A stretch of DNA of 64,000 nucleotides from an uncultured virus (IMG/VR IMGVR_UViG_3300034284_002793). Lineage: Duplodnaviria; Heunggongvirae; Uroviricota; Caudoviricetes. A program made the position numbers and the translations under genes. Under the pieces are notes generated by a model that saw only the letters and a program-made list of their open reading frames with translations, had not been told where the DNA came from and searched no databases. Position 1 is the stretch's first letter. Every line of letters begins with the position of its first letter. Location of the stretch: IMG/VR virus record IMGVR_UViG_3300034284_002793, positions 62,001 through 126,000 of that record. One strand, written 5' to 3'. Positions 43,223-61,813 of this stretch are shown here, piece after piece.

Positions 43223-44419
43223 ATGCCAACAAATTTTCAACAGTCAAAAGATGTTCTTCACCCATTAGCGTTTGAATTTATAAATAAATGTAAAAATTTA
43301 AATGCCCAGCTCGATGCATCCGAAATAAATGCAATTGATTTTTTAACAAGGCAACTTTTACAAAACAATCTTTGGGATAAATTCAAAGCAATATACCCAT
43401 TTGTTGGAAAAAGCTCACAAACACATTCTTTAAATTTAAAAAATTTACAGAGGCATACTATAGTGTGGTATAATCAAAATGATTTAAAACACGATAAATT
43501 TGGAGTTACAAATAGCAATATTGGATATGGCAACACTATGGTTGCCCCAAGCTGGTTTAGTGATAATGATATACATATATCAGTATATAACTCGACGTAT
43601 TGGCAAAACACAAATGATACCGCTCCAATAATAGGATCTTCACCCGCAAGTGACCCGACTAAGGGATGGATGCATACAATTTACTTAAGGTCATTAGCTC
43701 CTATTTTAAATTCACAAATAAATACATTATGGGACAGGGCACCAATCTTCACCTATTCCTGTGGTTATTCATCCAATTCATCAGTGAGATTTGCAGGAAC
43801 AGATGGTTCAGAGTTTCAACATGTAGAAACGTATGGTTTTATTGTTGGTGTAAATGGCATAAAATGCTATGTGAATGGAAATTTATATGGAAGACAGGGG
43901 GTAATTAACGATGTCTCAACGCAACCAATAAATCAAGTATCAACCAGAACTGTAAATGGAAATACCGCTCAAATACCAAACATATCTCAATTTCCATTCT
44001 TGTTATTCACAAATGGCAGATTCACGTCTACTAATGGACAAGCAAGGGCAAATATAAGATTTGCAAGTATTGGATATGAATTAACAGATCAAGAGAATAA
44101 AGTTTTATATAATATTATTCAAGAGTTCCAAAAAATACTTGGAAGAAGTGTTGAGCCAATAATATTAAAAACATTCCAGCAAAATCTTATAGACCAATAT
44201 TTAACATTAAATATTAAAATAAATAAAATTTTTATACAACCAACAAAGCCATATCGTGAATATTTAAATATTGAAATGCCACCAAAACAACAAAAGAAAA
44301 TAAATGCGCTTTCAGCAAGCGTAGATATTTCAAGAATCGAAGTTTTCGGCCCAGTGCGGGTATTTTGCGCAGATACTTCAAAAACAACCGTATCAATACA
44401 GTCTTTAGTAGAATTATAA
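43223..44419 (+). CDS. Virion protein (LWDKFKAIYPFVG family, LamG-like)
   Basis: Paralogous to the 47572 gene and to domains of the 50964 gene. Confidence 0.6.
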   Translation: MPTNFQQSKDVLHPLAFEFINKCKNLNAQLDASEINAIDFLTRQLLQNNLWDKFKAIYPFVGKSSQTHSLNLKNLQRHTIVWYNQNDLKHDKFGVTNSNIGYGNTMVAPSWFSDNDIHISVYNSTYWQNTNDTAPIIGSSPASDPTKGWMHTIYLRSLAPILNSQINTLWDRAPIFTYSCGYSSNSSVRFAGTDGSEFQHVETYGFIVGVNGIKCYVNGNLYGRQGVINDVSTQPINQVSTRTVNGNTAQIPNISQFPFLLFTNGRFTSTNGQARANIRFASIGYELTDQENKVLYNIIQEFQKILGRSVEPIILKTFQQNLIDQYLTLNIKINKIFIQPTKPYREYLNIEMPPKQQKKINALSASVDISRIEVFGPVRVFCADTSKTTVSIQSLVEL

Positions 44420-45538
44420 ATGAATATTTTAGTCAAACAATTTCAAGAATTTTATAAAGAACCACAAACCAAAGTGTGTGGAAAATGGAATATTTCTATT
44501 TTAGATAGAAACGGTAACGAATCTTTTCCATTTGGAAAAGAAATGAAAAAAAATCTGATATTAAATCAAGGCTTAGATCTGTTAATTGCTGGCAAATATT
44601 ATGGCGAATATTCAATTTTTAACTGGAATACAATACCATCATTTTTAATTGGTGGCGCTGTATATGGAAACGGATTGCTGCCAGCAAATGAATCTGACAT
44701 ATCATTAACAAATGAAATTGCAGAAACTTCTATAATTAATGATGATTCTTGTAGCATTACAGATAATTATACGAACGGAACGCGCACGTACAGAAAGGTA
44801 TATGACTTTCCAACAATAGAGATTGGAGATCCGAATACTCAAATTAGTGAAGTTGGCCTATTTTCAAACTGGCGAAATAATAAAACTCTTTTTTCAAAAT
44901 TTCTTTTACCAAGAGTTTTGCGGCTAGATTATGGGCAATGGATTAGATTATTTTATGATTTTACAATTGGTTCGGATATGATTGTAACCCCAAATAATAT
45001 TAATTTATCGTCAGGCAGTTTTAACGCGTCTGGTTTAATGAAATTATGCGGAAGATTTGATGATATATTTGGCAGTTTTGATGCGAATGGGAACCCTGTA
45101 ATTGTTTTCGGAGATTCTCCTCGTGCTTCTTTTATACCATTTTATGAAAATTTTTGCGCCGAGATATCCACATGTCAAACAGAATGTTTTGGAACCGCAT
45201 ATTTGTTAGCGCCAGGGATAAGCAACTTTAACGATACAAACACAAAAATCATATCCGAATGGATTGGCAATAGATTAGAAAAAAATTTAAATACAATAAA
45301 TCCATCAGAATATATAGATGGAAATTTTTATAGAGATATTGAATATATATTTGATTATAATAATCCAATTTATAATGAATTAACTGAAGGAATATTATTT
45401 ACAGTCCTTCGTGGTTCTGATACTAGCCCAAGACAAAACACAATTGATGGGTGGTTGTGGAAATTTAATAATGGTCAAATTAAACAATCATCAAAAAAAA
45501 TTGTAATAGGATTAAGACAATCTATAAATAGAATATAA
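44420..45538 (+). CDS. Virion protein, paralog family A
   Basis: Shares GKW..KNLI..G, YDF, LRLxYD, GxxKL and WKF blocks with the 45539 and 54817 genes. Confidence 0.6.
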   Translation: MNILVKQFQEFYKEPQTKVCGKWNISILDRNGNESFPFGKEMKKNLILNQGLDLLIAGKYYGEYSIFNWNTIPSFLIGGAVYGNGLLPANESDISLTNEIAETSIINDDSCSITDNYTNGTRTYRKVYDFPTIEIGDPNTQISEVGLFSNWRNNKTLFSKFLLPRVLRLDYGQWIRLFYDFTIGSDMIVTPNNINLSSGSFNASGLMKLCGRFDDIFGSFDANGNPVIVFGDSPRASFIPFYENFCAEISTCQTECFGTAYLLAPGISNFNDTNTKIISEWIGNRLEKNLNTINPSEYIDGNFYRDIEYIFDYNNPIYNELTEGILFTVLRGSDTSPRQNTIDGWLWKFNNGQIKQSSKKIVIGLRQSINRI

Positions 45539-47575
45539 ATGAATACCGCGAATATAAATACATATTTTGGTGCAAAGTGGAATATCGAAGTATGTAAGTC
45601 TGGTGAAAATGGTATAGAATCTTATTTTCCATTAGGTGAAAAACTTAAAAATAATATGATTCTAGATCATTGGCTAGAATCACTTATTTATTTATATTCT
45701 CCTTCTGGTGGGGCAGTAAAGGCATATTGCGATAATGGGCTATCATTGGCAGGAATAACAAGAGGAGCAATGCATATAGGTGCAGGTTCCATCCCGCCAA
45801 ACTATCAACAAACTGGATTACAAATTCCATTAAAATCAACTTCATATATAAGGCCATTTTTTAATCAATGCACGGGCATTTATTATCCAGAATCAGGCAT
45901 GGCCGTTATTAGTAAAAATTACGACTTTGGTATTGAAAATAATATAGTAACTTATTCAGAAGCTGGATTTCGGCCTGGCATTGCTGATGCGTTACCTACC
46001 GGAAAAAGAAATTGGCTATGGTCAAGATTTGTATTTACTAAAGAGACTGGAGTTTCTGGATATATATATGCAAACAGCGGAAGTATGGGAATTACTGGAA
46101 TGGATCTTAGCGGTGTATTTGTAGATAATAATCAGTATGATTTAAGAAAACCAACGGATCCACTTTATAATGGACTTAGTGGATTGCCATCATTTGAATT
46201 GGGATGGAGATATAACTGGCCAGAAAATTCTGGTATGTTTTTAATTGATCAAAGCGGCAGCACTACAGGTTTTGTTTATAACCCTAAAAATATTACAGAG
46301 CTAGTAACTGGATTTATAAGTGGATATTTAAGTGGCGGAAATTTTTATCCATTTACATTATCATCTTATCCAGCAGAATCAAGTGGACTTAGTGGAATTT
46401 ATTTGCAAGATGGGATAACAAATACTTTATATTTTTCATCTGGTGGATTTAATGAATTTTCTGGATTCACTGGAAAATATTTTAATACGAGTAGTGGATT
46501 TCAATACACTGGATTCGATCAAGGCTATTCTTTATACGGTAGTGGTTTTTATCCAACTAGCGGGATATTAACTGGTAGCATGACAGGAATTATTGGCTCA
46601 AGAAACGTACTAAAACTTGACGGGTATATTACAGGAACTATTGGATTTAAAAATATTACAAACCCAATAACTTTAAGCACAGGAGAATTTTTAAAATTAA
46701 GATATGATGTTTATATGCAGATACCTGCAATAGTTAACCCAATTTTAGTTACCGGCGACGATATAACTCATGGAGAATTTAACGGAAGCGGTCAATTAAA
46801 ACTAATAGGCAAACAAACAAGCATGTTTGGCACAATCGATGGGGATGGAAAAGTTACCCCAGGTATTGGAATTTGGTGGCCACTTCATAGAACAAACTAT
46901 TCAAAATATAGCCGAAGCCAATGGGATAATCTGGCGGAACCAAATGCTCACTTATCTGCATTAATGGTAGCAAGTGGAGTTAGCGGTGGTGGGGTAAATT
47001 TTAATGACTCTTTTCCAGAAACAAACACAACCTCTCCAATTGTTAGCGCGCAGCTTGATGATGAAATACGTTTTTGTGATACTCTTGAGCCAAAAATTGG
47101 AGACTGTGGAACCGGACTAAATAAACGATCTTATTTTGAAAAACGATACTATTCAAGCAAAGGATTAATGCAAAGCCCTTCATGGCCACTATACTCACAT
47201 TCTGGTGTGCGCGTGTACAATTATATAGCGCATAACCGTCCATCTGCAATATGGCCAAAAAGCATAGATATTCAAATGATTTTTCCTGGACCTTATCCAA
47301 ATCAAGATACTGGAATTAATGGTTTTTCTATATGTGGCGCATCAGAAGGAACGGTTTGCGGTGGAAGAACCATTGCGGATGGTCAAGGAAACGCATATAG
47401 ACCCGAGCAATACATTAAGCCTACTTTATACGAAAATACAGGGGCGTATCTTGATTGCGGATTAACACTTCCATACTCTGCGTGGTATTATAAATTCAAC
47501 AATCCACAAATGAAATATGAAGATCAAATAATTAATTTATATTTAACATTTTCTTTGGATAGAATAACTGTATGA
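45539..47575 (+). CDS. Virion protein, paralog family A with nested SG-rich insert
   Basis: Family A blocks interrupted by a ~200-aa Gly/Ser/Phe-rich segment. Confidence 0.6.
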   Translation: MNTANINTYFGAKWNIEVCKSGENGIESYFPLGEKLKNNMILDHWLESLIYLYSPSGGAVKAYCDNGLSLAGITRGAMHIGAGSIPPNYQQTGLQIPLKSTSYIRPFFNQCTGIYYPESGMAVISKNYDFGIENNIVTYSEAGFRPGIADALPTGKRNWLWSRFVFTKETGVSGYIYANSGSMGITGMDLSGVFVDNNQYDLRKPTDPLYNGLSGLPSFELGWRYNWPENSGMFLIDQSGSTTGFVYNPKNITELVTGFISGYLSGGNFYPFTLSSYPAESSGLSGIYLQDGITNTLYFSSGGFNEFSGFTGKYFNTSSGFQYTGFDQGYSLYGSGFYPTSGILTGSMTGIIGSRNVLKLDGYITGTIGFKNITNPITLSTGEFLKLRYDVYMQIPAIVNPILVTGDDITHGEFNGSGQLKLIGKQTSMFGTIDGDGKVTPGIGIWWPLHRTNYSKYSRSQWDNLAEPNAHLSALMVASGVSGGGVNFNDSFPETNTTSPIVSAQLDDEIRFCDTLEPKIGDCGTGLNKRSYFEKRYYSSKGLMQSPSWPLYSHSGVRVYNYIAHNRPSAIWPKSIDIQMIFPGPYPNQDTGINGFSICGASEGTVCGGRTIADGQGNAYRPEQYIKPTLYENTGAYLDCGLTLPYSAWYYKFNNPQMKYEDQIINLYLTFSLDRITV

Positions 47576-48438
47576 TTATAGCCAATCAAAGATCTTCTGA
47601 AAAGCATAAATTCATACTTGTAGCCAATCAGTATTTTTCGCTAATTAATAAGCCACGAAACCTTCCAACTTACCAAATAGGGGCAATAACAGAATTGATA
47701 AACGCACTGTACGAATCAAATTTATGGGAAAAATTTGTTGCAGTATATCCATTCGTTGGCGATGGTAGTTCTGAAAAAAACAGTTTAAATTTAATAGATC
47801 CATATAAATATAAAATTAGCTGGAGCGGATCTATTATATTTAATAAATTTGGTATTAATGGAAATGGTGGGATAGGATTGACAGGAATTAAATTGGTTGA
47901 TTTAAGCGATTTTACAAACGTTCATTTAAGCGCGTATACGCGCACAGCAATAACCAATACTATTGGGCGAGGAAGACTTATTGGGGCAAATACACAAAAT
48001 AGACTTGTTGCCATAAGAGACGTTGGCGCGCTAGAAATAAATTATAATAAAGAAAATGGTATAGTTGGATTTGTTTATAATGTGCTAAACAATAGCGGTG
48101 GATTTGGTATGATTTATGAAAATATGTTAAATAATTCAATTTCTGGAAATGGCTTTTTAATAGCAAATAACAACAATAAAGAAAAAAAATACGCAAAATG
48201 TTATCTCAATGGTTCTATTTTTGGAGAGCAATTTCCATTACTTCCAACAGAAATACACACAGCAAACCAGAGAACGTTAACAATATTTGGAGATGGGTAT
48301 GAAAACCTAAACACATCACCACTACGAGCCAATATTGCATTTGCCAGTATTGGATACGGTCTTTCAGATAATGATATATTTAATTTTAATAAAATAGTAC
48401 AATCTTTTCAGGTGGCAATGGATAGATCAGTAATGTAA
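47572..48438 (+). CDS. Virion protein, paralog of 43223
   Basis: LWEKFVAVYPFVG and RANIAFASIGYGL. Confidence 0.6.
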   Translation: MIIANQRSSEKHKFILVANQYFSLINKPRNLPTYQIGAITELINALYESNLWEKFVAVYPFVGDGSSEKNSLNLIDPYKYKISWSGSIIFNKFGINGNGGIGLTGIKLVDLSDFTNVHLSAYTRTAITNTIGRGRLIGANTQNRLVAIRDVGALEINYNKENGIVGFVYNVLNNSGGFGMIYENMLNNSISGNGFLIANNNNKEKKYAKCYLNGSIFGEQFPLLPTEIHTANQRTLTIFGDGYENLNTSPLRANIAFASIGYGLSDNDIFNFNKIVQSFQVAMDRSVM

Positions 48439-48446
48439 TAAAAATA

Positions 48447-50957
48447 ATGGCAAGCGTTTTTTCAATTGAGAGTATCAACCTAAATGGCGATATATTAACC
48501 GCAAATAATGGCAGTTTATATATTAACAATAATTTAGTAAAAAATACATCTGGAATACAACTTTCAGATAGATTTTTTATAAAAGGCTATGCTCCGATAT
48601 CATTTTACTCCAAATGGCCACAGCAAGGAGATTATTTAAATGAAACGTATTTGAATGATTTTTTTATGGCTACTGGAATGCTTGTAACATGCAGCCAGCC
48701 AAGTACCGGAAATCAAATATTTTGGGGTGGATTTTATCAACGCCCAGCATCATCATCAATAGATACAACTGTATTTGCAAACTTTGAATTACAACCAAAG
48801 CAAATCATACAGCATAACCCTATAAATTATAAAATTGAACGTGACAGAATTATAGGGCTAAATATATATAATGCACCCGAAGATATGCGCTCTATCTCAA
48901 TTCATTTGTTGGGATATTTTCCAGCAGCAGCTCATTTTGATAGGATGCCTAAGCAAATTAATTTTTATGCAAAAAATGCTCCTATCTATGGAGACAGTAT
49001 TCATGAAGAATATTCTCAATGGGATTCGCTATATACTGGTGTTGGAATATACTGCTCAACGACTGGAATTGACAAATTAACATACACCCAACTAATAACT
49101 GGATATATTAGTGGCGTAGCTCAAAATGAACCATTATATGTATTATCTAAAAGTTTAGCAAAACAAAAATGCGACCCATGCGATCCAGATATGGATTTTT
49201 CATCATGGAGTGGTTATTATTTAAATGAAAATAAAATAAATTTTCCAACAGGAAATAATTTTTCTGGACTATCTGGGCAAAATGGATTTTCCAACACTTC
49301 TGGCTTTTCATATACAGGATTTCAAATATTAAACAATCAAACAATATTAAATGGAATATATAGCGGCTACGGAGATTCACTATTTGGATCTGGGGAAATG
49401 TTGCAAAGTATAGGATGGAGAAGTGGGGCTTTTATAGAGCCAATATCTGGATTTGTAAGCGGCTATACTGATCAATACGGCACATTCAAACGCCTTTCCA
49501 TTATTACCACTGGAGTTTCCGGCTCTGGGATAGATACTGGAATATTTAGGCTAGACTTAACTGGGTTTGTAATTGGATCAAGTGGTTACTTTATTAATGG
49601 TAAAAAATATTTTTTTCCATCAGATAGGCCAATTTCTTATAATATAGTTGGTTTCATGAGTGGCTATATGGATTCTATCGGTCGATTTTCAGGTTTTCAA
49701 AATCTAAATATCATATCAGGATCAAGTGGATATTTTATAAATACACCATCCGATTATGTGCAAGTATTTTTTCCTACTGGAAACTCTTTCAATAACTTTA
49801 TTGGTATGTATGGAATTTATACTGGTAGCGGATACTCATCATATCATACTGGATTTTCATTTCCTCTTGGAAGTGGATTTTCTGGAATTGACGGGCTGAC
49901 ATCGAATACTTATGGCATTATGACTGGCATAATTGGAGCAGCAAACATTTTCATTCCATTTTCTGGATTTTCTGGACGACCAAATGTTGATATTGGTTTG
50001 GGCTTTGATTATAGCGGATTGCGAGGAGATTTATACAAGACTTCATTTTCTGGACAAAGCTATGATGGTTTTGGATATACTGGTCAATTAATTTCTATAT
50101 TTGGAAAAAGAAATGTTTCTGGGAGGCAAGACATAACTGGCTTTGTTAGAACTGATGCAAAAATAAATTTTATACCCACAGCATCTTCACCAACAGTTTC
50201 TGGCATAAGTGGATACTATTTGGACAATAATATATATAGATTTCCAATAGGCCCATTCTATCCGCCATATTATGAATTTCCAAAATTTGATGATAACCCT
50301 GCATTTACAAAGTACGGAAATAGTTATAGTGGATTCTATCCATTTGAAAGCGGGTTCAGCGGTTTTGGAGTTACTGGAATTAGAAAAGAATATATAATTG
50401 GGTTTATAAGTGGATACAAGGATGTATTTGAACAATTTTTCCAATTTACAGGACCAAGTGGCAGTAGCGGATTTATAACTGGAAGTCAAAAATTTTTCTT
50501 TCCATCCGGTTCGCAATTTTCTGGATTTTCTGGATTTTCTGGATTTGATAATAATTTAGGATTTTTATATTCAGGCTTTAGCTCAAATCCTTATAGAAAT
50601 GAAAATTTTATTGGAGATATTTATTCCACATCTGGATCTGGAATAATCACTGGAATTGTTGGTTGGAGAAATGTTGAGTTTGTTACAAAAGAATATGGTA
50701 CTGGAATAATGACAGGCTTTATTGGTAGTAGAAATGCCCCATACTCTGGCATATTGACTGGAAATTTTTACCATAAAGATAAATTTAGCAATAAAATAAT
50801 TGGACCAAAATTTGGTTTAAATACTGGACAATTATATAATGAATCATTTGGTATTGGATTTAAAGTTCCTTATGGAAATAGGGTAGGAATTGATTTGTAC
50901 AATCCACTATCTGGAATATCAGACATAAATATAACTATGTTTGGTTACTATGAATAA
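48447..50957 (+). CDS. Large Gly/Ser-rich virion protein
   Basis: Two repeats like those of the 32257 gene, the second split by a ~550-aa SG-rich repeat region. Confidence 0.6.
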   Translation: MASVFSIESINLNGDILTANNGSLYINNNLVKNTSGIQLSDRFFIKGYAPISFYSKWPQQGDYLNETYLNDFFMATGMLVTCSQPSTGNQIFWGGFYQRPASSSIDTTVFANFELQPKQIIQHNPINYKIERDRIIGLNIYNAPEDMRSISIHLLGYFPAAAHFDRMPKQINFYAKNAPIYGDSIHEEYSQWDSLYTGVGIYCSTTGIDKLTYTQLITGYISGVAQNEPLYVLSKSLAKQKCDPCDPDMDFSSWSGYYLNENKINFPTGNNFSGLSGQNGFSNTSGFSYTGFQILNNQTILNGIYSGYGDSLFGSGEMLQSIGWRSGAFIEPISGFVSGYTDQYGTFKRLSIITTGVSGSGIDTGIFRLDLTGFVIGSSGYFINGKKYFFPSDRPISYNIVGFMSGYMDSIGRFSGFQNLNIISGSSGYFINTPSDYVQVFFPTGNSFNNFIGMYGIYTGSGYSSYHTGFSFPLGSGFSGIDGLTSNTYGIMTGIIGAANIFIPFSGFSGRPNVDIGLGFDYSGLRGDLYKTSFSGQSYDGFGYTGQLISIFGKRNVSGRQDITGFVRTDAKINFIPTASSPTVSGISGYYLDNNIYRFPIGPFYPPYYEFPKFDDNPAFTKYGNSYSGFYPFESGFSGFGVTGIRKEYIIGFISGYKDVFEQFFQFTGPSGSSGFITGSQKFFFPSGSQFSGFSGFSGFDNNLGFLYSGFSSNPYRNENFIGDIYSTSGSGIITGIVGWRNVEFVTKEYGTGIMTGFIGSRNAPYSGILTGNFYHKDKFSNKIIGPKFGLNTGQLYNESFGIGFKVPYGNRVGIDLYNPLSGISDINITMFGYYE

Positions 50958-50963
50958 TATGTT

Positions 50964-53900
50964 ATGCTATTTGAAGACATAAAGCATCCACTTGTTAGCG
51001 ATTTTTTAACTAGAATCAGTGGGTCTGGCTATACATATTTAAATACTGAGTCTTCTAGTAGAATAAATGATTTTGTTAAATATTTGGGATCCATCACTGC
51101 AGATAATGGTGACGATTTTGCTTTTTATCCCCTAAGGCAAGCGCAAAATATAGGAATAGGAAATCAGATATTTGGCATTGGATATATGGCATCTGGCACA
51201 AATATTGTTTTTCCCCAAAATATAAACTGGACAGAGTCTGGCATTTTACTAAATAGCATTAAAAATTGTGGTATTTTAAATTTTTCTGGCAAATTAAAAG
51301 ATTCAAAATTTCAATTTAGAAAAAATGAAACTTCTATCTTTTATTTTTTAAAACATAATAGGCCTAAATATGAAACATCGTTATATAGGGATGGACAAGT
51401 ATGTCCATATTTTTGGTTCGATGATTCCTTAGATAATTTTGGCGTAATTGCTCCAGAATTTTCTACCAGCGATTTTAGAACAACCGGGACAACATACCTT
51501 TATGACGAAATATATGGTGGAGATAAAAAGGGCTACCAGATTGATTTTTCATCAGATGATCCAACAAAATATAATGTGTTTAATTCTAATACTGGAAGGG
51601 CGATAGGCACTGGTATAGCTCCATATGTACCACCAGCAGTTTCATTTTATGAAATGGACAATAATGAAAATAAATTTGTATGTATTAACGCAGTAATACG
51701 AGAAAGCCAATATTCTATTAGATCATTTTTTGGCCGCGATTATAGAAGTTTAACTGGAAATTTTCCAAATCCATATCAATCTATTGAAGTTACTGATCCA
51801 AAAACTCAAGAAGTTTATATTGATAATTTTTTTCCAAGAAGAATGGTAATTGGCGCTGGCGTAAGAAACAAAAGCGCAGCTGGCTATGATTTGGATGGCA
51901 CAGATCATATATGTGCTGGAATTTTAATATTAAGAGGCGACTATAGCAATAAATCAAAAGATATTGCCGAAAATATGGCTGAGGCTATTGGTATAAAAAT
52001 TCGCCCTCCTAAAAATTTGGATACAACATTTGCTTTTGGAAATATATTAAATGATAGATTTGCCTGTAGCGGATATATAGCATCAATCAATTATTATGAT
52101 TATACAAGTCCAGTTTTATACAAAACATATAGCGACTATTATGATATTGTAAACTTTACAGCTTCAATATACAGCGGATCATACATTGACTATGGCCAAT
52201 GGACATATAATGTGGTCAATAGCGTTACTGGAGAATTAAGATCGCCACAAATCGGTGATACAATTAATAATGATAGCAATATAACTGGAATAGTAAATTT
52301 AATTGGCTTCCAAAATGGCATAACAGCTCCGTTTGGTGCATTTTATAATCAAGGAGTAATAGGTTTTGTTAGTGGATATGCTACAAAAATAAATAACGAA
52401 TTTATCTTTAACAGATTCACAGAGCAGACAGAAAGTGGAGCGAGCGGTTTTTATAGATCAAATATCAGCGGTATAGCAACGGGGCAAATTTTCTTTCCAC
52501 CAATAAGAAAAATATTTCAAGAATTAATTACTGGATATGTTAGTGGCATTAAAGACTCAGATAGTTTATTTACTCCCTTTGATTCTAGCTCCAACCTATA
52601 TTCTAGTGGATATTATTATGGTGATCAAGTATATGCATACCCACAAATTGGCATTATACCGCAAAAAATAACTGGCTATATTAGCGGATTTTTATCTGAA
52701 AACGGAATATTCTCAGAATTTGATAAAAATTATTTGGATAGTTCTAGTGGATATTTTTATAGCGAAAATTCATACGAATTCTTGCCTAAAAAAACTATTA
52801 CTAATTCTCCCGTAACAGGATTTTTAGTTGGAATGAAAAGCGGAGATTATTTTTCCGGATACTATCAAAATACACCAACTGACGGCTTGTACAGTGGATT
52901 TTTTATAGATAATGATTTTTCTAACCCAGCAGAAATAGAACCAGTTATTGAAATATATTTTCCAACAGGCTCTGGGTTGTTTTCTGGATTTAGCGGCATG
53001 TCCGGAATAGATGAGCGTCTTGGCTTTAATTTTACAGGATTTTTTCAGAACATATTTGATATAAATGGTGATCCGATTTTGGATGAGAGCGGAAATGCAA
53101 TCATACTGTCATTTGATGGAAGTAGTGGATTTATTGATATTGGTGCTGGGCCATTTCCAAACACAAGAACAGCTTCATGCACCGGAATTATAGGGTCAAA
53201 GAATGTTTTAAATTTTTCTGGAAGTTTTGATGGCTTTAATAATATAGAAGTACCAGATATAAATTATGGATCTTCATATAGTGGATTTTTCATTGAATCT
53301 AGTGGGTTTGTCGGTACAGGAAATTTTGGAAGTGGAATGTTTACAGGATTTATTGGATCTATAAATATACTTGAATACATCAACTTAACAGGATTTCAAG
53401 ATAACTTAGATTTTCTTGCCGGAGGATTATTTACAGGATTTTCGTTTCCGCTTGGGTCTGGTTTTAGTGGATTATATGATAATCTTTCTGGAACTGGAAT
53501 ACAAACAGGATTTATTGGATCAAGATATTATCTTATGGAATCTGGATCTTTTTCTGGATTTTCTGGCTTTTCAGGATTTTCTGATGCATTTTTAAATGAA
53601 ATAAATATTGATTTTTCTTTTCAAAATGGAAGTGGATTTTCTGGACTATATTTTCAAGATTCTGGCTACGGTGTTATCTCTGGATTAATTACTACCGGAA
53701 AATCTCCATTGCTATTTGGGGATCCATTATATTTCGTTCCTTCTATATTGGCAATATCATATGGTGGCAATTTTACGCAATTCATAACTGGTGACTTTAT
53801 TTTTACTGGCGTTATTCCAGATATTACTGGTATTAGATATTTATCTGGTGCTGTATTTACCTATGCAATTAATACAGGATCATTAATAACTGGAGACATT

Positions 53901-54749
53901 TTTGTAACAGGAACGCACCCAGAAATAACCTCATTAAACTACTTTGCTACTACAGGCGAAGATATTATATTGTCTGGCTTTGATGGCAATGCACTTTCAT
54001 ATATATTTAGATTGGAAGCATATGAGGGGCAAAAGCTTGAAAGTGGAGTAAGGGTAGAAATTAATAAATTTATATCAGGATTAAAAACTGATGGTATATG
54101 GGATAGTATTACAGATTGCTGTTTGATGGCTGGACCAAGAACATTTTCTGGAGCTTTTGTTCCATTAAAAGGAAATAGCGGTATTGGTTATAACTTTATT
54201 AGTAGTGATTATAATCGCGCTAGCGGTTTAATTGGTGATGCATCATCAAAATATGTTGATTCTAATCGAAGCTTAAACATAGAACCTTCAGGAAACCAAC
54301 ACTTGGCAGTTTATATAACTAAAACTGGATCGCCATCATTTAATCAGTACTATATCGGCGCTGGTGTTCAAAACGTAACTGGATCAAGCGCTATTTATGC
54401 TAGCGGTGCAGGTGCGCTTTTCCAAAAATCTAGAGCAAGTGGAATAGCTAATTATCAAAATTTTGGACCATCCACGGGCTTCATGGCGGTCTCAAGATTT
54501 AGCACGGGTATTTGGGCTGCAAGAAATACATATATATCAGAAACAGCCTTTGTTTATGTAGAAAGTGGGGCGCAACCAGCGAATGTGTATGTTTTTGCCA
54601 ATAATAATACTGGCATTGGGGCTGGTATGCCAGAGGGTTATAGCGATGCAAGAATTGCCATTTATTCTATCGGCACGAATATTAATATATTATCAAATTA
54701 TGAAAATAGAGTTATTTCATACCTTAGTGGTATTAAGAAATATGTTTAA
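50964..54749 (+). CDS. Large Gly/Ser-rich virion/fibre protein
   Basis: 1261 aa; nested SG modules; C-terminal LKTDGIWDSI..LMAG domain. Confidence 0.6.
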   Translation: MLFEDIKHPLVSDFLTRISGSGYTYLNTESSSRINDFVKYLGSITADNGDDFAFYPLRQAQNIGIGNQIFGIGYMASGTNIVFPQNINWTESGILLNSIKNCGILNFSGKLKDSKFQFRKNETSIFYFLKHNRPKYETSLYRDGQVCPYFWFDDSLDNFGVIAPEFSTSDFRTTGTTYLYDEIYGGDKKGYQIDFSSDDPTKYNVFNSNTGRAIGTGIAPYVPPAVSFYEMDNNENKFVCINAVIRESQYSIRSFFGRDYRSLTGNFPNPYQSIEVTDPKTQEVYIDNFFPRRMVIGAGVRNKSAAGYDLDGTDHICAGILILRGDYSNKSKDIAENMAEAIGIKIRPPKNLDTTFAFGNILNDRFACSGYIASINYYDYTSPVLYKTYSDYYDIVNFTASIYSGSYIDYGQWTYNVVNSVTGELRSPQIGDTINNDSNITGIVNLIGFQNGITAPFGAFYNQGVIGFVSGYATKINNEFIFNRFTEQTESGASGFYRSNISGIATGQIFFPPIRKIFQELITGYVSGIKDSDSLFTPFDSSSNLYSSGYYYGDQVYAYPQIGIIPQKITGYISGFLSENGIFSEFDKNYLDSSSGYFYSENSYEFLPKKTITNSPVTGFLVGMKSGDYFSGYYQNTPTDGLYSGFFIDNDFSNPAEIEPVIEIYFPTGSGLFSGFSGMSGIDERLGFNFTGFFQNIFDINGDPILDESGNAIILSFDGSSGFIDIGAGPFPNTRTASCTGIIGSKNVLNFSGSFDGFNNIEVPDINYGSSYSGFFIESSGFVGTGNFGSGMFTGFIGSINILEYINLTGFQDNLDFLAGGLFTGFSFPLGSGFSGLYDNLSGTGIQTGFIGSRYYLMESGSFSGFSGFSGFSDAFLNEINIDFSFQNGSGFSGLYFQDSGYGVISGLITTGKSPLLFGDPLYFVPSILAISYGGNFTQFITGDFIFTGVIPDITGIRYLSGAVFTYAINTGSLITGDIFVTGTHPEITSLNYFATTGEDIILSGFDGNALSYIFRLEAYEGQKLESGVRVEINKFISGLKTDGIWDSITDCCLMAGPRTFSGAFVPLKGNSGIGYNFISSDYNRASGLIGDASSKYVDSNRSLNIEPSGNQHLAVYITKTGSPSFNQYYIGAGVQNVTGSSAIYASGAGALFQKSRASGIANYQNFGPSTGFMAVSRFSTGIWAARNTYISETAFVYVESGAQPANVYVFANNNTGIGAGMPEGYSDARIAIYSIGTNINILSNYENRVISYLSGIKKYV

Positions 54750-54816
54750 TTATTAATTAATAAAAAATTAAATTTTACAATATTAGAAATGTATATATAA
54801 TAAGGGAAATAAAGTT

Positions 54817-56112
54817 ATGCCTCTAAATATTTTAAAAAAACGCCATATCGAAACAGAAATTGAGAATAACACTCATGTAGATGGTGAATGGAAAGTTGAG
54901 ATTGTATGCCAAAATGGTGAAATTAAAAAGCCTCTTGGAGATAAATGGCGAAAAAACTTAATTCAAGATAGAGGATTGAATATATTCAATGGCACGTATG
55001 GAAGTTTTAGCAGCAATGCTAATGCGAATACTAATTCAATATCAGCCTTTATAAGTTCGGCATATTTTGGAAATAGCAGTGCTGATCCGTTTGCTACAGA
55101 TAAAACATTTTTAACTAGCACAAACAATAATATATACTATACAAGAAGAAACACTCTAAACGTACCAGAAAATACAAATCCAAACAGCGATGATTTAGTA
55201 ACGGGGTCACGAACTTTTACAAAAGTATGGGATTTTGCATCTCTGGCTGCTGGCGAAACGCGCGATGTTAGAGAAATAGTGATTGCGGCCAATACTTATG
55301 ATGGTTTTAATAATTCTACCGATCAAAGCAAGGGGACCCAAGGAACATTTACAACAAACATACCAGTAATTTCGCGCTTTATTCTTCCATCAACAGTAAC
55401 TCTAACTGAATTTCAATTTTTAAGACTTTACTATTCAATAAAAGTAACAGTTCCAGCAATAGTTACGCCAGTTCCGATTACATTGTCAAATAACGGTTTT
55501 GATGGAACTGGTCAATTAAAATTAATAGGCCTATGGTCTAGTATATTTTCTGGAAATGGCCACTTATGGCAGCGCAGAAACTTTGGCACTTTGATTAACG
55601 TAGTTTCAACTCCACATACGCCATGGTCGCTAATCGGAAGAGATGGAATGGCAGCTTTACCGCTTAAAGGCAATTCAAATCCAAATTTAAATTTTAATTT
55701 TCCAGCAGTTGGTGCTGATTTTTCAATATCGTATGCAAATGCGTTATATGATGCAACACAAACTGTACTCCATACTTCACCAGGCTGCTCTGTTAGTCCA
55801 TCGTCAGCAGTTCAACAAACGGTTGTAAACCAGTCTGTGTCAAGAGAGGCTACTATGCTGTTTCAAGCAAATAACCCAAGCGTGAATAGCCCACTTGCTG
55901 GATTTGTTTTCCTTCCTCGCGGTGAAGGCAATAATTTTACGGGAGGATCGACTCCAACTTTTACCGAAGCTCTTACTACAGATACTGCTCTTGGAAGATA
56001 CATGTGGTACTGGAGGTTCACAGACCCAACATTTACAAATCCAAGATCTGTAATTAAAGATGTCAACTATGGCCTTGTGGTTAATTTGCGGCAAACAATT
56101 GCAAGAGGCTAA
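54817..56112 (+). CDS. Virion protein, paralog family A
   Basis: GEWKVEI..PLG..KNLIQDRGL, LRLYY, PAIVTP and GTGQLKLIG. Confidence 0.6.
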   Translation: MPLNILKKRHIETEIENNTHVDGEWKVEIVCQNGEIKKPLGDKWRKNLIQDRGLNIFNGTYGSFSSNANANTNSISAFISSAYFGNSSADPFATDKTFLTSTNNNIYYTRRNTLNVPENTNPNSDDLVTGSRTFTKVWDFASLAAGETRDVREIVIAANTYDGFNNSTDQSKGTQGTFTTNIPVISRFILPSTVTLTEFQFLRLYYSIKVTVPAIVTPVPITLSNNGFDGTGQLKLIGLWSSIFSGNGHLWQRRNFGTLINVVSTPHTPWSLIGRDGMAALPLKGNSNPNLNFNFPAVGADFSISYANALYDATQTVLHTSPGCSVSPSSAVQQTVVNQSVSREATMLFQANNPSVNSPLAGFVFLPRGEGNNFTGGSTPTFTEALTTDTALGRYMWYWRFTDPTFTNPRSVIKDVNYGLVVNLRQTIARG

Positions 56113-56778
56113 TTATTTATCTAAAAATTTTAGTTTGATTTTGCCATTACTGTCTATTAATGCATAGCTAACTGGTAGGTCGCATTGGGAGCCCAAGTTA
56201 ACGCATTCAACCCAATCCACAGTTTTGTGTTCGGGCATATGGGTGTGGCCAAACACCACAGTACTGCATCCTAGATCGCGGCCATGATGTGCAACCCGGC
56301 GCAACACTCTTTCAGCCGAAGAACGCCACGTTTTTATTTTTCGCTTGAGCTTGCGGGTGAATTTTTGCCCCTTGTCAATTTTTTGCAAGAAATAATATAT
56401 TCCAGATGCTATTTCAGTGAGTACTGGCCGCATTTTAATAATATAATCCCAACGATCACCGTGGACAAAATAGAAACGCTTTCCATTAATAACCTCAATG
56501 TGTTCGTGTTTAAAATCAAAACCTAATAGCGCACTAACAGTATCCAGATCGCGGTCATGATTACCCTTAATAAAAATGCATTTTTTATTTTTTGATAGTT
56601 TGCGCAATAATGATAATACTTTCCACTGACGTTTGCATAAACGATGAATATTGTACGAATCCAGCAAATCTCCACATATTATTAAACTATCATACGTTTC
56701 CTCTTCAAGTATTTTTAAAACTAAATCTGCTTGGCATACAGGGCTGCCAAGATGTATGTCTGAAAGGCACAGTATCAT
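56113..56778 (-). CDS. Calcineurin-like metallophosphoesterase (LpxH-like)
   Basis: SDIHLG, GDLLD, GNHD, HGD and GHTH motifs. Confidence 0.85.
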   Translation of the reverse strand: MILCLSDIHLGSPVCQADLVLKILEEETYDSLIICGDLLDSYNIHRLCKRQWKVLSLLRKLSKNKKCIFIKGNHDRDLDTVSALLGFDFKHEHIEVINGKRFYFVHGDRWDYIIKMRPVLTEIASGIYYFLQKIDKGQKFTRKLKRKIKTWRSSAERVLRRVAHHGRDLGCSTVVFGHTHMPEHKTVDWVECVNLGSQCDLPVSYALIDSNGKIKLKFLDK

Positions 56779-57918: not shown

Positions 57919-58266
57919 ATGAAAGATAAAGAAAACACCACGTTCAACGTCAACGGAACCCTTTGCACGCTCGTCGTCTCGGAAGATCGGGAGGATGATT
58001 GCACGAAGCTTTGGCATGACCTCGTCAGCGTTGACACTGGCAAGGTCGTCGCAACCCTCGACTGGTCGCCCTACTCTTGCCCCTCTAATGAGGAAGTGCA
58101 GCAGATCATCGACCTCGGCCTGCCTAATGGCTTGCGTTGGGCTAACTCTCACCCTTCTTCTCGCTTCAACTTCGATAGCCTCATGCTGGCGAAATACCTC
58201 TCTGGCTACGAGCATCCCGATGGCGGCAAGATCGAACTGGTCTTCCGCGTTCGCTTGGCCGCATAA
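57919..58266 (+). CDS. Early hypothetical protein
   Basis: 115 aa; EDREDDCTKLWH and LDWSPY; own promoter. Confidence 0.75.
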   Translation: MKDKENTTFNVNGTLCTLVVSEDREDDCTKLWHDLVSVDTGKVVATLDWSPYSCPSNEEVQQIIDLGLPNGLRWANSHPSSRFNFDSLMLAKYLSGYEHPDGGKIELVFRVRLAA

Positions 58267-58309
58267 AAAAACTCTTGCGCTTCCACTCAACATCCCATAC
58301 TCTAACAAT

Positions 58310-58519
58310 ATGAACAGCATCCACGACGACTACAACACGCAACCGCAATCCGACGAATACGCGACCGAGCACGAGGAAGTGCGCGGCACGTTCGCCGCCG
58401 AGCCTGCCGTTGAGCAGGAGCCGCAACCCTATGATGGGTTTGAGGGGCAGTGGGCTGGGGATGGGTCGGGCTTCGACGACCTCGCAGACTGGGGCGAGCA
58501 GGAGGGCTGGGACACGTAA
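58310..58519 (+). CDS. Highly acidic early protein (69 aa)
   Basis: Start MNSIHDD follows TTGCGC-17-TACTCT by 6 nt; GDGSGFDDLAD motif. Confidence 0.75.
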   Translation: MNSIHDDYNTQPQSDEYATEHEEVRGTFAAEPAVEQEPQPYDGFEGQWAGDGSGFDDLADWGEQEGWDT

Positions 58520-58590
58520 GAGTGTCATAAACTTTCTCCGAACGTTTCGATGCGTGTCTCCATGACGCGGGAATAAACGATGAGGAGACG

Positions 58591-58616
58591 AAGCGCCCGT
58601 TTAAACGGGCGTTTCA
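58591..58616 (+). terminator. Palindrome / possible terminator
   Basis: Perfect palindrome cgcccgtttaaacgggcg followed by ttt. Confidence 0.5.
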
Positions 58617-58637
58617 ATTTGCTAAAATTCAATGTTG

Positions 58638-58716
58638 CGTAAACCCTTGATATTCAACAACTTACGCTGGCGCGCGGGGCGCGCGGCCGTAAGTCCTTGA
58701 TAATTAACGACTTACG
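58638..58716. repeat. 79-bp double-palindrome element, copy 2
   Basis: Boxes 58638-58666 and 58688-58716. Confidence 0.9.
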
Positions 58717-58853
58717 TAACGTCATCAAGAGTGTCATAAAGAATGTCATAGCGCAAAATTCAAACGCTCGTTTGCCAAAACGTCAACAAAAATAGTTTCG
58801 CTAATCGCAAAAAAATATCTCGCTTTTCGCGCGTCCTGTGCTATTCTGTATAC

Positions 58854-59036
58854 ATGAGAAACAACAACAGAAGCTGGCGCGACGAAGAACGCGAAGCAAC
58901 CCTCGACTACCCGCTAGGTGTGGATCGTGAAGATCCCGCCTACCAGCAAAGCCCAGACGCTTACGAGCGTGAAATCGAGCGCCTTAATCGGCACGAAGGC
59001 TGGGAGCGTAATCGCGGTGGTTACTACCGCCGATGA
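58854..59036 (+). CDS. Early hypothetical protein
   Basis: 60 aa; TCGCTT-16-TATTCT, ATG 6 nt later. Confidence 0.7.
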   Translation: MRNNNRSWRDEEREATLDYPLGVDREDPAYQQSPDAYEREIERLNRHEGWERNRGGYYRR

Positions 59037-59079
59037 AAAATCGCTTGACTTTCAGCCCCATTTCACCGATACTTTCAAC

Positions 59080-59244
59080 ATGACAGAAAACACCACAACT
59101 GGCTGGCCCGAAGTCTGGAACTTCGACGAACCCAAAGACGACAACCTCACGCCCGAACAAGCGTTCGACATCCTTTTCGGCTACGCCGAGGAGCGTCATC
59201 GCAACGACCCGTGCGCTCGTCCCGCCCCTAAACCCAAACACTAA
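59080..59244 (+). CDS. Early hypothetical protein (54 aa)
   Basis: Start MTENTT follows TTGACT-17-GATACT by 6 nt. Confidence 0.65.
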   Translation: MTENTTTGWPEVWNFDEPKDDNLTPEQAFDILFGYAEERHRNDPCARPAPKPKH

Positions 59245-59248
59245 CACT

Positions 59249-59458
59249 ATGACAAACACAGACGGCATCATCAAGTCGCTTGAAACTCTCATCAAGCATG
59301 AGAAAGCAATTCAGCGTCAAGAAAAAGAAATTGAAAAATTAAAAGACATCATTGATGGCTCTTTGCAGACGATGCAGGGCCTTCTTGTGTTGAGCGCTGT
59401 TCTCTCAAAAGAGATTGAAAGCTTGCACAATAATAAGCCTTCTTTTGGACTAAACTAA
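59249..59458 (+). CDS. Small coiled-coil early protein
   Basis: 69 aa; coupled to the upstream gene. Confidence 0.65.
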   Translation: MTNTDGIIKSLETLIKHEKAIQRQEKEIEKLKDIIDGSLQTMQGLLVLSAVLSKEIESLHNNKPSFGLN

Positions 59459-59459
59459 C

Positions 59460-59615
59460 ATGAGCAAAATCATTATGACAATCGACACGCGACCGCTTGC
59501 GCGTGTCATAGAGCGCAGCGTCCGCAAGGCATCTTGCCGCCCATCCTTCGCCATGCGTGTCAAGAAAAAATTCGCGCGCAAGGCAAAGTTTTTTCGCGGT
59601 TGGTCTGATCAGTAA
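59460..59615 (+). CDS. Small basic protein (51 aa)
   Basis: MSKIIMTIDTRPLARVIERSVRKASCRPSFAMRVKKKFARKAKFFRGWSDQ; its stop codon lies inside repeat 3. Confidence 0.55.
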   Translation: MSKIIMTIDTRPLARVIERSVRKASCRPSFAMRVKKKFARKAKFFRGWSDQ

Positions 59616-59689
59616 AGCTTTGAATATCAACGACTTGCGGCGGCGCGCCCCGCCGCGCGGCATAACCCATTGCAAATCAACGACTTGCA
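59611..59689. repeat. 79-bp double-palindrome element, copy 3
   Basis: Boxes 59611-59639 and 59661-59689. Confidence 0.9.
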
Positions 59690-59699
59690 ATATATAGTA

Positions 59700-59716
59700 T
59701 TCAGGTAGCGTGCCAA
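59700..59716 (-). promoter_or_regulatory. sigma54-like -24/-12 motif
   Basis: TTGGCACG-CTAC-CTGAA on the minus strand. Confidence 0.45.
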
Positions 59717-59791
59717 TATTGGCGAATCTATAAAAATAAAAAAATAAAAAAACCTATTGACGAAAACATCAAACCGAGTTAGCATAAATGT

Positions 59792-60256
59792 ATGAAAAAT
59801 AAAATTATAACAATCATAGTCACTGCATTGGTAACCGCAGCAGTTACTTTCGTTACTCTATCACTTACAGATAGCGAACCGCTGACCGACTGGGTAAAAA
59901 TGGCGAAGTTAAGAATTAAAGGATGCTCTGATCCCGAGGCGCACCTGAGCAACGCCAAGCGGATAAAGGGTTGGCTTACCGCAGTTGGAGAGCATGAGCC
60001 TGTTAGTGTGAGAATCAGAGAAGGTGTAGGCTTGCCGCCAGACCAGAGTTTGGCTCCTAAAGGGGTTAAACTCACTCCAACAGCTACAGAAATGTTCATT
60101 TTAGTTCGTTCTTCTGATTTTGAGAACAATATCCGTGAGATATACGAATTTGATCTCATGAAAATTATGGTGGATAAGGATGCAAGAAAACAATTAAGAG
60201 AACTTATTACCAAAACTAAAGCACAGAGCAATGAGTTTGGTTTCGGTAGTAACTAA
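59792..60256 (+). CDS. Membrane-anchored early protein
   Basis: N-terminal TM/signal segment; TTGACG-17-TAGCAT promoter, ATG 6 nt later. Confidence 0.7.
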   Translation: MKNKIITIIVTALVTAAVTFVTLSLTDSEPLTDWVKMAKLRIKGCSDPEAHLSNAKRIKGWLTAVGEHEPVSVRIREGVGLPPDQSLAPKGVKLTPTATEMFILVRSSDFENNIREIYEFDLMKIMVDKDARKQLRELITKTKAQSNEFGFGSN

Positions 60257-60326
60257 CTGAAATTCAACAACTTGCAGAGCCAGATCGGGCCGCGCGGCGT
60301 AACTCCTTGATATTCAAAGACTTACG
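60248..60326. repeat. 79-bp double-palindrome element, copy 4
   Basis: Boxes 60248-60276 and 60298-60326. Confidence 0.88.
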
Positions 60327-60336
60327 CAAAACGCTA

Positions 60337-60353
60337 CGCAATAGCCATGCCAA
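60337..60353 (-). promoter_or_regulatory. sigma54-like -24/-12 motif
   Basis: TTGGCATG-GCTA-TTGCG, near-consensus. Confidence 0.55.
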
Positions 60354-60427
60354 GTTGCAGAAAAAAAATTTCACACAATCGCAAAAAAATCCCTTGCATT
60401 TTTGCGCGTCCGCGCTATATTGAAATC

Positions 60428-60943
60428 ATGAAAGAGAGAAAATCACTAAACGAAAAGCCTCTGACTTGCCTGTTCGTCGGCGTTACCCTCGCTTTGGTAT
60501 CAGCAGGAGTTGCCATTTATGGGTTGCGGTTTGGGTTTGCGTCTATTGCCTTTTTGCTTGTTGCTGCTGCAATCTTAAATATCGCAGCGTGGTTTTTTGC
60601 CACCCCTGTCGTCTCTTTCGTTGGCGATTTTGTAGGAAAATTTTTTACTGGAAGTCAAAACTTTAGCAAGCCCCAGCCTGCTTACAGCCTGCCAGATGGT
60701 CTTGCCGCTACCGGACAAAACGCTTGCGCTATCCTTGCCTACAATGAACTTGCAAAAAATCATCCCGAAGAAATCTTGCCTCATCTTCGCGTGATGAGAA
60801 TATGGATTGAAAAAATGAATGACGTTGACGCTGCGGTTATGGCTTACAATCTCGCCTTGAAAAAAATTCGCGGACAAAAAAATCGCAACGAGTTTACAAA
60901 AATGGCAAAAAATAATTTCAGCAAATTCATCAGCTTTGAATGA
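60428..60943 (+). CDS. Two-TM membrane protein with TPR-like C-terminus
   Basis: Start MKERKS follows TTGCAT-16-TATATT by 6 nt. Confidence 0.7.
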   Translation: MKERKSLNEKPLTCLFVGVTLALVSAGVAIYGLRFGFASIAFLLVAAAILNIAAWFFATPVVSFVGDFVGKFFTGSQNFSKPQPAYSLPDGLAATGQNACAILAYNELAKNHPEEILPHLRVMRIWIEKMNDVDAAVMAYNLALKKIRGQKNRNEFTKMAKNNFSKFISFE

Positions 60944-61008
60944 GTGTCATAGCAATGTCATAAACGCTCGGTCAAACGGGCGTTTTACTTTGCGCGAAAC
61001 CAATTCTA

Positions 61009-61087
61009 TATAAACCCTTGAAAATCAACGACTTACGGCGGCGCGCCCCGCCGCGCGGCGTAACCCATTGCAAATCAACAACTTACA
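61009..61087. repeat. 79-bp double-palindrome element, copy 5
   Basis: Boxes 61009-61037 and 61059-61087. Confidence 0.9.
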
Positions 61088-61097
61088 ACATACATCA

Positions 61098-61114
61098 TTC
61101 AGATAGCGTGCCAA
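61098..61114 (-). promoter_or_regulatory. sigma54-like -24/-12 motif
   Basis: TTGGCACG-CTAT-CTGAA. Confidence 0.45.
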
Positions 61115-61196
61115 CTTTGCAGAGGGGCAAAAAATAAAAAAAATAAAAAACGAAAAAATCCCTTGCGTTTTTGCAGTCCTGTGCTATTCTTTAAGC

Positions 61197-61349
61197 ATGG
61201 AAAAGAAAATGACTCAATATGCGGACAAGCTCAACGCCTTCCGCGCTGGCGAAATCACCGAGGACGAATGGAAAGCGTTCTGTTTTGAGGCTCTCTCCGA
61301 GATTCTCGAAGACACGAAAGATGTCCTCATCAGGCTGAAAAATGCTTGA
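61197..61349 (+). CDS. Early hypothetical protein (50 aa)
   Basis: MEKKMTQYADKLNAFRAGEITEDEWKAFC...; TTGCGT-16-TATTCT, ATG 6 nt later; not in the ORF track. Confidence 0.7.
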   Translation: MEKKMTQYADKLNAFRAGEITEDEWKAFCFEALSEILEDTKDVLIRLKNA

Positions 61350-61380
61350 CCCAATCGCAACAATCAAACATACTACGACC

Positions 61381-61809: not shown

Positions 61810-61813
61810 TCAC

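Follow-up and report, generated by a model that had tools for sequence, protein, structure and literature searches.

Recursive self-insertion of a protein domain has been documented in very few systems, and those that can be cited are the two-level nesting of DysF domains in ferlins and the six-level Si3 arm of RNA polymerase. In the structural description given in PMC3898210, the DysF domain has two long antiparallel terminal strands (residues 946 to 958 and 1036 to 1049) that are joined by a 77-residue loop, and in ferlins one DysF domain is nested within another. In the Si3 region of the β′ subunit of cyanobacterial RNA polymerase, SBHM-2 to SBHM-5 are built from distant parts of the chain, according to the domain description in PMC10895346, and a 2026 survey (PMC13114784) describes Si3 as recursive insertion over six levels, with the form A1-B1-C-B2-A2 and with hosts that branch. 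The present study concerns two neighboring genes in a 64,000-nucleotide stretch of DNA from an uncultured virus of the Caudoviricetes (hereafter the window), i.e., positions 62001 to 126000 of the linear record IMGVR_UViG_3300034284_002793, which has 132,627 bases and is estimated to be 88% complete. These genes encode P0001 (836 amino acids [aa]; window positions 48447 to 50957, plus strand) and P0002 (1,261 aa; open reading frame [ORF] at 50964 to 54749, plus strand). Both proteins carry copies of a module of approximately 100 residues whose two halves, A and B, follow each other like opening and closing parentheses, and we consider it likely that they represent a self-nested β module that forms out-and-back, branchable arms in tail-fiber- or adhesin-like proteins.

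The predicted module is similar to DysF in its layout: two long strands (residues 5 to 17 and 97 to 110) with 79 residues between them match the arrangement described in PMC3898210. On the other hand, DysF contains Arg/Trp stacks, whereas the conserved residues of the module are Gly, Ser, Phe, and Tyr (its invariant or nearly invariant columns are Gly, Ser, Phe, and Pro). The nesting in ferlins is two deep, whereas it is four deep here and five deep in the deepest balanced relative, and ferlins are eukaryotic membrane-repair proteins, whereas P0001 and P0002 are phage fiber-like proteins. With Si3, as characterized in the relevant parts of PMC10895346 and PMC13114784, the module would share both the insertion of a small β domain into its own copies and an elongated arm. 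The form A1-B1-C-B2-A2 was also found here, in the bracket parse, in the insertion and deletion of units, and in the nested range classes of the structural model. Si3 nevertheless appears to belong to another domain family (SBHM/HABAS) and is fixed in an essential enzyme, whereas the number and position of the units described here vary between related phages and among three neighboring genes. The likeness to known phage fibers lies in an out-and-back chain or in a binding domain carried by a loop of a structural host. The needle of T4 gp37 and the receptor-binding domains inserted in distal tail proteins are single-level arrangements and are not known to be recursive self-insertions. A literature search for nested or recursive insertion in phage tail fibers found no relevant paper. 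The original prediction, made for this DNA from its letters, did not recognize the architecture from described phage fibers; the precedents outside such fibers are the ferlin DysF domains and Si3.

Halves A and B and their order

After iteration, the profiles of half A and half B have 43 and 57 positions, respectively, with the consensus TGFISG...SGY...FFP for A and FSGFSG...YSGF...TGIIGxRN for B. This consensus carries the motifs of the original prediction, which had proposed a two-half module of approximately 100 residues over spans that correspond to residues 216 to 764 of P0001 and 465 to 912 of P0002. In a first test, hidden Markov models based solely on the P0002 copies (four of each half) were applied to P0001 and to 400 shuffles with preserved composition, which reached at most 8.1 bits (A) and 7.7 bits (B). 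Three of the five A copies in P0001 scored above the shuffles (at residues 215, 399, and 561 with 9.7, 19.1, and 9.2 bits, respectively), as did the B pieces at 447 (23.1 bits), 610 (11.7 bits), 687 (25.0 bits), and 749 (12.5 bits), and the copies A331 (6.4 bits), A649 (7.7 bits), B271 (−6.8 bits), and B504 (0.6 bits) were not above them. In a second test, for which the profiles had been iterated three times with 57 proteins of the family and 285 shuffles served as controls (maxima of 6.8 bits for A and 12.3 bits for B), every copy named in the original prediction was recovered. The full copies scored 27 to 58 bits in P0001 and 29 to 54 bits in P0002; these scores are not independent because the profiles were trained partly on the same proteins.

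P0001 consists of a conserved N-terminal domain (residues 1 to 214), a module region (residues 215 to 763), and a short C-terminal part, and the order of the module region is (AB)(A(AB)B)(A B-body (AB) closing strand). Module 1 is a simple AB unit (A215-268 and B268-325; positions 49089 to 49421, on the plus strand like all the module positions that follow). The outer half A of module 2 (A331-391; 49437 to 49619) is the host of an insertion, the inner module 3 (A399-444 and B444-501; 49641 to 49949), and module 2 is closed by the outer half B505-557 (49959 to 50117), as seen both from the profile and from the comparison of orthologs. Module 4 begins with A561-600 and a B body (approximately residues 610 to 647) without its last strand (50127 to 50387); the inner module 5 (A648-686 and B687-743; 50388 to 50675) is inserted before the last strand of this B, and the lone closing strand b748-763 (17 bits; 50688 to 50735) completes module 4. 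The profile match B610-657 overlaps the start of the next A, and its last-strand positions (profile positions 41 to 56) recur alone at residues 748 to 763. Since the last strand of B (TGIIG) and the first strand of A (TGFISG) have similar motifs, overlapping matches occur and some parses are ambiguous.

In P0002, the order over residues 463 to 911 is AAAABBBB. The putative outward run A1 to A4 (A463-513, A520-560, A567-609, and A616-668; positions 52350 to 52967), which is seen in the profile and in the model, is followed by the putative return run B1 to B4 (B670-748, B749-802, B806-856, and B857-911; residues 670 to 914, positions 52971 to 53705). Both this order and that of P0001 are the ones originally proposed, and the profiles give them far above the shuffles. 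The innermost module of P0002, i.e., the predicted tip of the arm, has approximately 10 extra residues in A4 (52890 to 52967) and approximately 23 in B1 (53040 to 53120) that are absent from the other copies. These stretches are kept in the closer orthologs, and B1 comprises 68 to 81 residues in P0003 to P0014 (consensus and profile coordinates); in P0015 to P0018, the group with 36 to 41% identity, the B1 copies have just 53 to 56 residues (profile coordinates).

The order was read in the whole family with a bracket rule, in which each A that has its first strand opens a bracket and each B that includes its own last strand closes one, as does a last strand standing alone. Perfect balance was observed in 44 of the 57 proteins and in 11 of the 20 distinct bracket strings, compared with a mean of 2.0 of 20 (maximum, 7) in 2,000 shuffles of the strings, a comparison that is indicative only, as weighed below. 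The bracket order is a family trait, and the statement that the halves balance like parentheses holds for most of the relatives as well. The comparison of nesting depth among relatives, which had been suggested as a check, gives a range from one (ABABAB in P0053 and P0054), through architectures such as ((())()), to four or five among the balanced proteins.

Gain and loss of whole modules among relatives

Insertions and deletions of whole units in the aligned sequences are the strongest evidence for self-insertion. P0001 and P0044, which lacks the N terminus, are 61% identical over 553 aligned residues, and their difference is residues 393 to 504 of P0001, i.e., one complete AB unit (A399 to B501) that lies between the FFPS of the outer A and the FSGFSG of the outer B. 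The junction reads YYFPS-GNL-FSGFSG in P0044, whereas it reads YFFPS, 112 residues comprising A399 to B501, and FSGFSG in P0001. The outer A and outer B are likewise adjacent in P0045, P0046, and P0047, all without inner module 3. P0033 carries an inserted unit at this place, as P0001 does, so that the same pattern of presence and absence is seen between P0033 and P0045. P0047, which is without the inner unit of P0001, has an extra A (residues 552 to 599) and B at the place of the A648|B687 junction of P0001. For the inserted unit of P0001, the most similar AB units are at other positions in three of these proteins, namely, A670/B716 of P0045, A652/B698 of P0046, and A559/B600 of P0047. The claim that the module inserts into itself is supported by these relatives, which differ by complete AB units at the FFP|FSGF junction.

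The halves separated by such a unit can be traced to adjacent halves in the relatives. A331 and B505 of P0001, which are 114 residues apart, best match the adjacent pairs A160|B220 of P0044 (where A160-219 is directly followed by B), A327|B390 of P0045, A309|B372 of P0046, and A312|B369 of P0047. In a partner test with 15 representatives picked from the 44 balanced proteins, the best match of A and that of B formed a bracket pair 183 times in 233 clear cases (58.4 expected by chance). Among the 98 clear cases in which one or both proteins have the module split, this happened 74 times (23.2 expected by chance). Both counts are inflated, and the pairs of split and adjacent orthologs are the reliable part of the partner evidence. 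Mapping of the P0002 halves by best match onto distant architectures gave no clear orthology.

No more than a few bases (TTCCAT) are common to the left edge and the right edge of the inserted unit. These bases encode the same Phe-Pro motif, and the shared edges were not adopted as an insertion mechanism. In a DNA repeat search, the only notable repeats of the three module genes, i.e., those of P0001, P0002, and a 678-aa protein, were runs of the 9-base unit TTTTCTGGA at 50508 to 50564 and 53541 to 53588, which encode the (FSG)n that opens some B halves. Because the DNA repeats are of motif length only, there is no sign of recent duplication.

Outside the modules, residues 1 to 214 of P0001 are conserved among relatives with differing module regions. 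The gene of the 678-aa protein (45539 to 47575, plus strand) contains one clear AB unit (A254-291 and B300-357; 46298 to 46609) with a weak B ahead of it, and the protein shares its N- and C-terminal domains with the 1,235-aa P0024, which has seven A copies as opposed to this one clear module. The syntenic counterparts of this gene (positions 1416 to 5144 of locus L005 and 1549 to 5151 of locus L007; P0024/P0027 type) encode proteins of approximately 1,200 aa with the order AAAABABBBABABb, and their N- and C-terminal domains are 30 to 32% identical to those of the 678-aa protein. A conserved N-terminal part combined with a variable distal part, as expected of fibers, is therefore found both in the P0001 family and in the pair of the 678-aa protein and P0024.

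Predicted structures and competing explanations

AlphaFold2 models were obtained for residues 400 to 1010 of P0002 (17-row alignment) and for the single module at residues 392 to 506 of P0001 (25-row alignment of modules from the window and four viral loci). The single module has a mean predicted local distance difference test score (pLDDT) of 75.9 and a predicted template modeling score (pTM) of 0.67, which suggests that it folds on its own. Its two long strands lie in the most confident 10-residue blocks (means of 81 to 90), the A|B junction lies in a coil (residues 52 to 74), which is the least confident interior part, and the second insertion site is the loop ahead of the last strand. The P0002 model is all-β with a mean pLDDT of 57.8 and a pTM of 0.35, and blocks of 70 to 88 are found over residues 519 to 859. 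Strands of 17 to 18 residues are located at the A/A boundaries (514 to 530, 561 to 577, and 609 to 626) and at the B/B boundaries (735 to 752, 789 to 806, and 843 to 860), and the mean pLDDT values of the layers are approximately 53/48 for A1/B4, 78/66 for A2/B3, 80/74 for A3/B2, and 75/73 for A4/B1.

VIA-align against 48,161 chains was used as a probe of which segments of this array model lie together. All 34 + 1 alignment rows (wide search and second look) begin and end on mirrored partners, and they fall into the range classes A4B1 (model residues 210-216 to 334-352; 10 rows), A3..B2 (161-168 to 401-407; 7 + 1 rows), A2..B3 (115-121 to 452-463; 15 rows), and A1..B4 (64-66 to 513-519; 2 rows); none of the 35 rows joins A to A, B to B, or halves that are not mirrored. 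In the three outer classes, only 42 to 93 residues are aligned within ranges of 235 to 455 residues, so the alignments must skip the inner layers. Since all Z-scores are 3.7 or less, the rows indicate which segments are close to each other in the model and do not identify the fold. The long-range nested pairing of A and B that the original prediction expected in a predicted structure is thus present in this moderate-confidence model, albeit as an indirect result from 35 of 35 mirrored ranges, and the A1-B4 layer is poorly predicted. Halves that are disordered or fold independently, which had been named as incompatible with nesting, were not seen in layers 2 to 4 (pLDDT of 66 to 80), and the value for layer 1 is approximately 50.

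The top structural matches of the module model are DysF chains, i.e., 4cah_B (inner DysF of dysferlin; Z-score = 3.0, number of aligned residues = 90, root mean square deviation = 4.8), 9h6x_D (myoferlin; Z-score = 2.8), and 8p5p_A (TECPR1; Z-score = 2.2), and in the array model, DysF chains match the A2..B3 layer. A Z-score of approximately 3 is far too low for a claim of kinship with DysF, and neither a Pfam match nor a conserved Arg/Trp pattern is present. The only Si3 chain listed was 8emb_D (Foldseek E = 0.18, TM = 0.08), and none was among the VIA-align rows. Foldseek gave no match at E ≤ 0.001 for the array model against the PDB or for the module model against the PDB and BFVD, and the best VIA-align Z-scores (3.0 for the module and 3.7 for the array) provide no usable fold assignment.

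Searches with sequences were similarly sparse. A 28-module profile matched 20 of 1,835,955,588 representative proteins at E ≤ 0.001, all of them members of the fiber-like family. No families were found in Pfam (E ≤ 0.01) for P0001 or P0002 or in NCBIfam for seven proteins including both, and PDB sequence searches with P0002, the P0001 family profile, and a 372-aa neighbor had no matches at E ≤ 1. A metagenome scan with the P0001 family alignment returned two loci only, both duplicates of known ones, and the ESM Atlas had no P0001 model (feature matches scored 0.80, which is the chance level). The P0001 family occurs on eight viral contigs. The order of the three module genes is conserved on all those in which the locus is long enough (L002 stops short of the third gene), and in the whole virus record all 11 module matches fall within these three genes. 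The module is a β-rich domain of approximately 100 residues from a family that has not been described before.

Several points weigh against nested self-insertion. The nested pairing is read from the first and last aligned residues of weak matches (Z-score ≤ 3.7) to a model with a pLDDT of 57.8 and a pTM of 0.35, whose outermost layer (A1 and B4) has a pLDDT of approximately 50, and the structures cover the P0002 array and, of P0001, a single module. Thirteen of the 57 proteins are unbalanced, most of them without one to three closing strands, possibly as a result of divergent copies or of proteins cut at contig ends. The bracket rule, in which a B overlapped by the next A is counted without its last strand, was devised after the data had been seen, and for this reason and because the proteins are related, the comparison with shuffled strings is indicative only. 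The partner counts are too high because the proteins are related and because both halves of many queries are drawn to a few very canonical modules. For P0002, the similarities among A1 to A4 and among B1 to B4 fit mirrored and same-order histories equally (correlations of 0.62/0.64, −0.70/0.69, and 0.05/0.12); insertion is therefore not demonstrated for the four-deep nest, with which separate duplication of A and B is equally compatible. Only the gene context points to a possible virion or tail-fiber role.

The same bracket order could also arise if halves pair between chains, with A of one chain packed on B of its neighbor to form an intertwined trimeric shaft. Phage fibers are usually trimers and commonly intertwined ones, and as the models are monomeric, with a low pTM (0.35) for the whole array, pairing within a chain is not distinguishable in them from pairing between chains. 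We nevertheless judge this shaft to be unlikely, given that the single module reaches its pTM of 0.67 as a monomer, that the monomeric array model already pairs mirrored halves, and that whole AB units are gained or lost between relatives with no other change, a pattern to be expected of domains that are self-contained. It is quite improbable that the A repeats and B repeats are two unrelated tandem arrays, each forming its own stretch of a shaft, whose equal numbers and order reflect coincidence or shared ancestry. AAAABBBB by itself would also come from two such arrays, all 17 relatives of P0002 with this order (P0003 to P0018) keep four copies of each half and thus count as one event, and the similarity matrices do not favor a mirrored history; however, AB units are adjacent in simple relatives such as P0053 and P0054, balance was found in 11 distinct architectures where 2.0 were expected, the insertions and deletions comprise whole AB units at the junction, and none of the 35 structural alignment rows joins like halves.

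An artifact of composition, in which low complexity rich in Gly, Ser, Phe, and Tyr mimics ordered halves, is scarcely credible. Although Gly, Ser, Phe, Ile, and Tyr together account for 52% of P0001 and 48% of P0002, and only short motif repeats such as TTTTCTGGA recur at the DNA level, the profile scores of 27 to 58 bits contrast with shuffle maxima of 6.8 and 12.3 bits, the boundaries of A and B are kept across relatives down to approximately 30% identity, and the module fold is predicted with confidence by AlphaFold2.

Proposed arms and their genome setting

In the proposed nested architecture, the first strand of A (TGFISG) and the last strand of B (TGIIGxRN), both of which are long, would pair antiparallel and bring the termini together, and the remainder of the module would consist of short strands and loops. 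With adjacent termini, a complete module could be inserted in a surface loop of a second module and leave that host intact. Two loops would accept insertions, namely, the A|B junction, flanked by FFP(S/T)G and FSGF, and the loop that leads into the last strand of B. A series of the type A^nB^n would then form an out-and-back arm in which the chain ascends by way of the A halves, reverses in the innermost module, and comes back by way of the B halves, such that layer i consists of A(i) and B(n+1−i), and two insertions in one host would produce a branch. Since such an arm would start and end at the same point, the N- and C-terminal domains would stay adjacent, which would result in a side arm of adjustable length and shape. 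In this manner, tail-fiber- or adhesin-like virion proteins may change their reach and geometry by gain and loss of whole modules.

The window is AT-rich, with approximately 31% G+C up to 56 kb. On the basis of PHROG matches, the minus strand encodes the large terminase (37081 to 38985), the portal protein (35129 to 37024), and a 1,680-aa tape measure protein (16021 to 21063). Among the matches listed, the terminase is at most 24% identical to phage records, which suggests an uncultured lineage. The fiber-like cluster lies on the strand opposite to this block; it comprises seven plus-strand genes (43223 to 56112), including those of P0001 and P0002, and its start adjoins a PhoH-like gene. The 372-aa protein (44420 to 45538, plus strand), encoded two genes upstream of P0001, has an N terminus that matches phrog_4176 "tail fiber protein" (E = 1.4e-09) and is the sole direct annotation link to tails within the cluster. 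P0001 has no match in PHROG. The only PHROG matched by P0002 is phrog_17104 (function not assigned), which corresponds to its C-terminal domain (residues 1006 to 1257; 53979 to 54734, plus strand). The phrog_17104 domain is a free-standing protein in the Synechococcus phages S-CBS4 and KBS-S-2A, and its gene in S-CBS4 is located a few genes downstream of three that carry a tail fiber protein annotation. The sharing of this domain hints that it may be exchangeable and that the host is possibly a cyanobacterium.

The C-terminal domain of P0002 (53979 to 54734 in the window; 7953 to 8840 in locus L011) is 35 to 47% identical to proteins of S-CBS4, KBS-S-2A, S-CBWM1, and S-SRP02, and the Synechococcus phage records with the phrog_17104 domain span 40 to 139 kb. 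Between B4 and this domain, residues 916 to 1005 (53709 to 53978) form a short Thr/Gly-rich repeat (ITGD..TG...) that is unlike A or B and has a pLDDT below 35 in the array model. Elsewhere in the window, an ORF with weak similarity to sigma-70 regions 2 and 4 (1564 to 2211, minus strand; below the Pfam cutoffs), a glycosyltransferase-like ORF (3168 to 5120, plus strand; phrog_2170), and a calcineurin-like metallophosphoesterase (56113 to 56778, minus strand) were observed. The G+C content rises from approximately 0.31–0.38 to 0.44–0.50 in the final segment of the window (58001 to 64000), which contains short overlapping ORFs only, save for a 300-aa ORF (62607 to 63509) that matches Pfam GP88 (PF17338, E = 4.5e-40). 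No tRNAs were found in this segment, and no Rfam match at E ≤ 0.01 was found between 56000 and 64000. By calculation, the end of an IMG/VR contig that has an identical fiber gene falls at approximately window position 58585, not far from the shift in G+C. The segment could be foreign or a noncoding region.

What is new in this locus is a module family, 20 members of which were found among 1.84 billion representative proteins, in probable phage adhesins. Among related phages and neighboring paralogs, the nesting depth ranges from one to four or five, with clean presence or absence of single units at a defined loop, and the evolutionary steps can therefore be read directly, unlike those of the fixed Si3 arm. 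If the arms are as proposed, a module whose termini are adjacent and in which two loops are permissive would lend itself naturally to use as a protein engineering scaffold. Tentatively, recursive self-insertion of a small domain with adjacent termini might be a general way, undescribed in print, for uncultured phages to lengthen and branch their host-binding appendages. The process might still be active here, with three neighboring genes and their relatives gaining, losing, and moving whole modules at two fixed loops, possibly with the aid of the short conserved DNA motifs on either side of each module. In that case, the length and branching of the arms would constitute a host-range trait that can be tuned. 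Provided that the arms bind host surfaces or reach them, the insertion of modules would offer a way of changing host range that is distinct from the swapping of tip domains.

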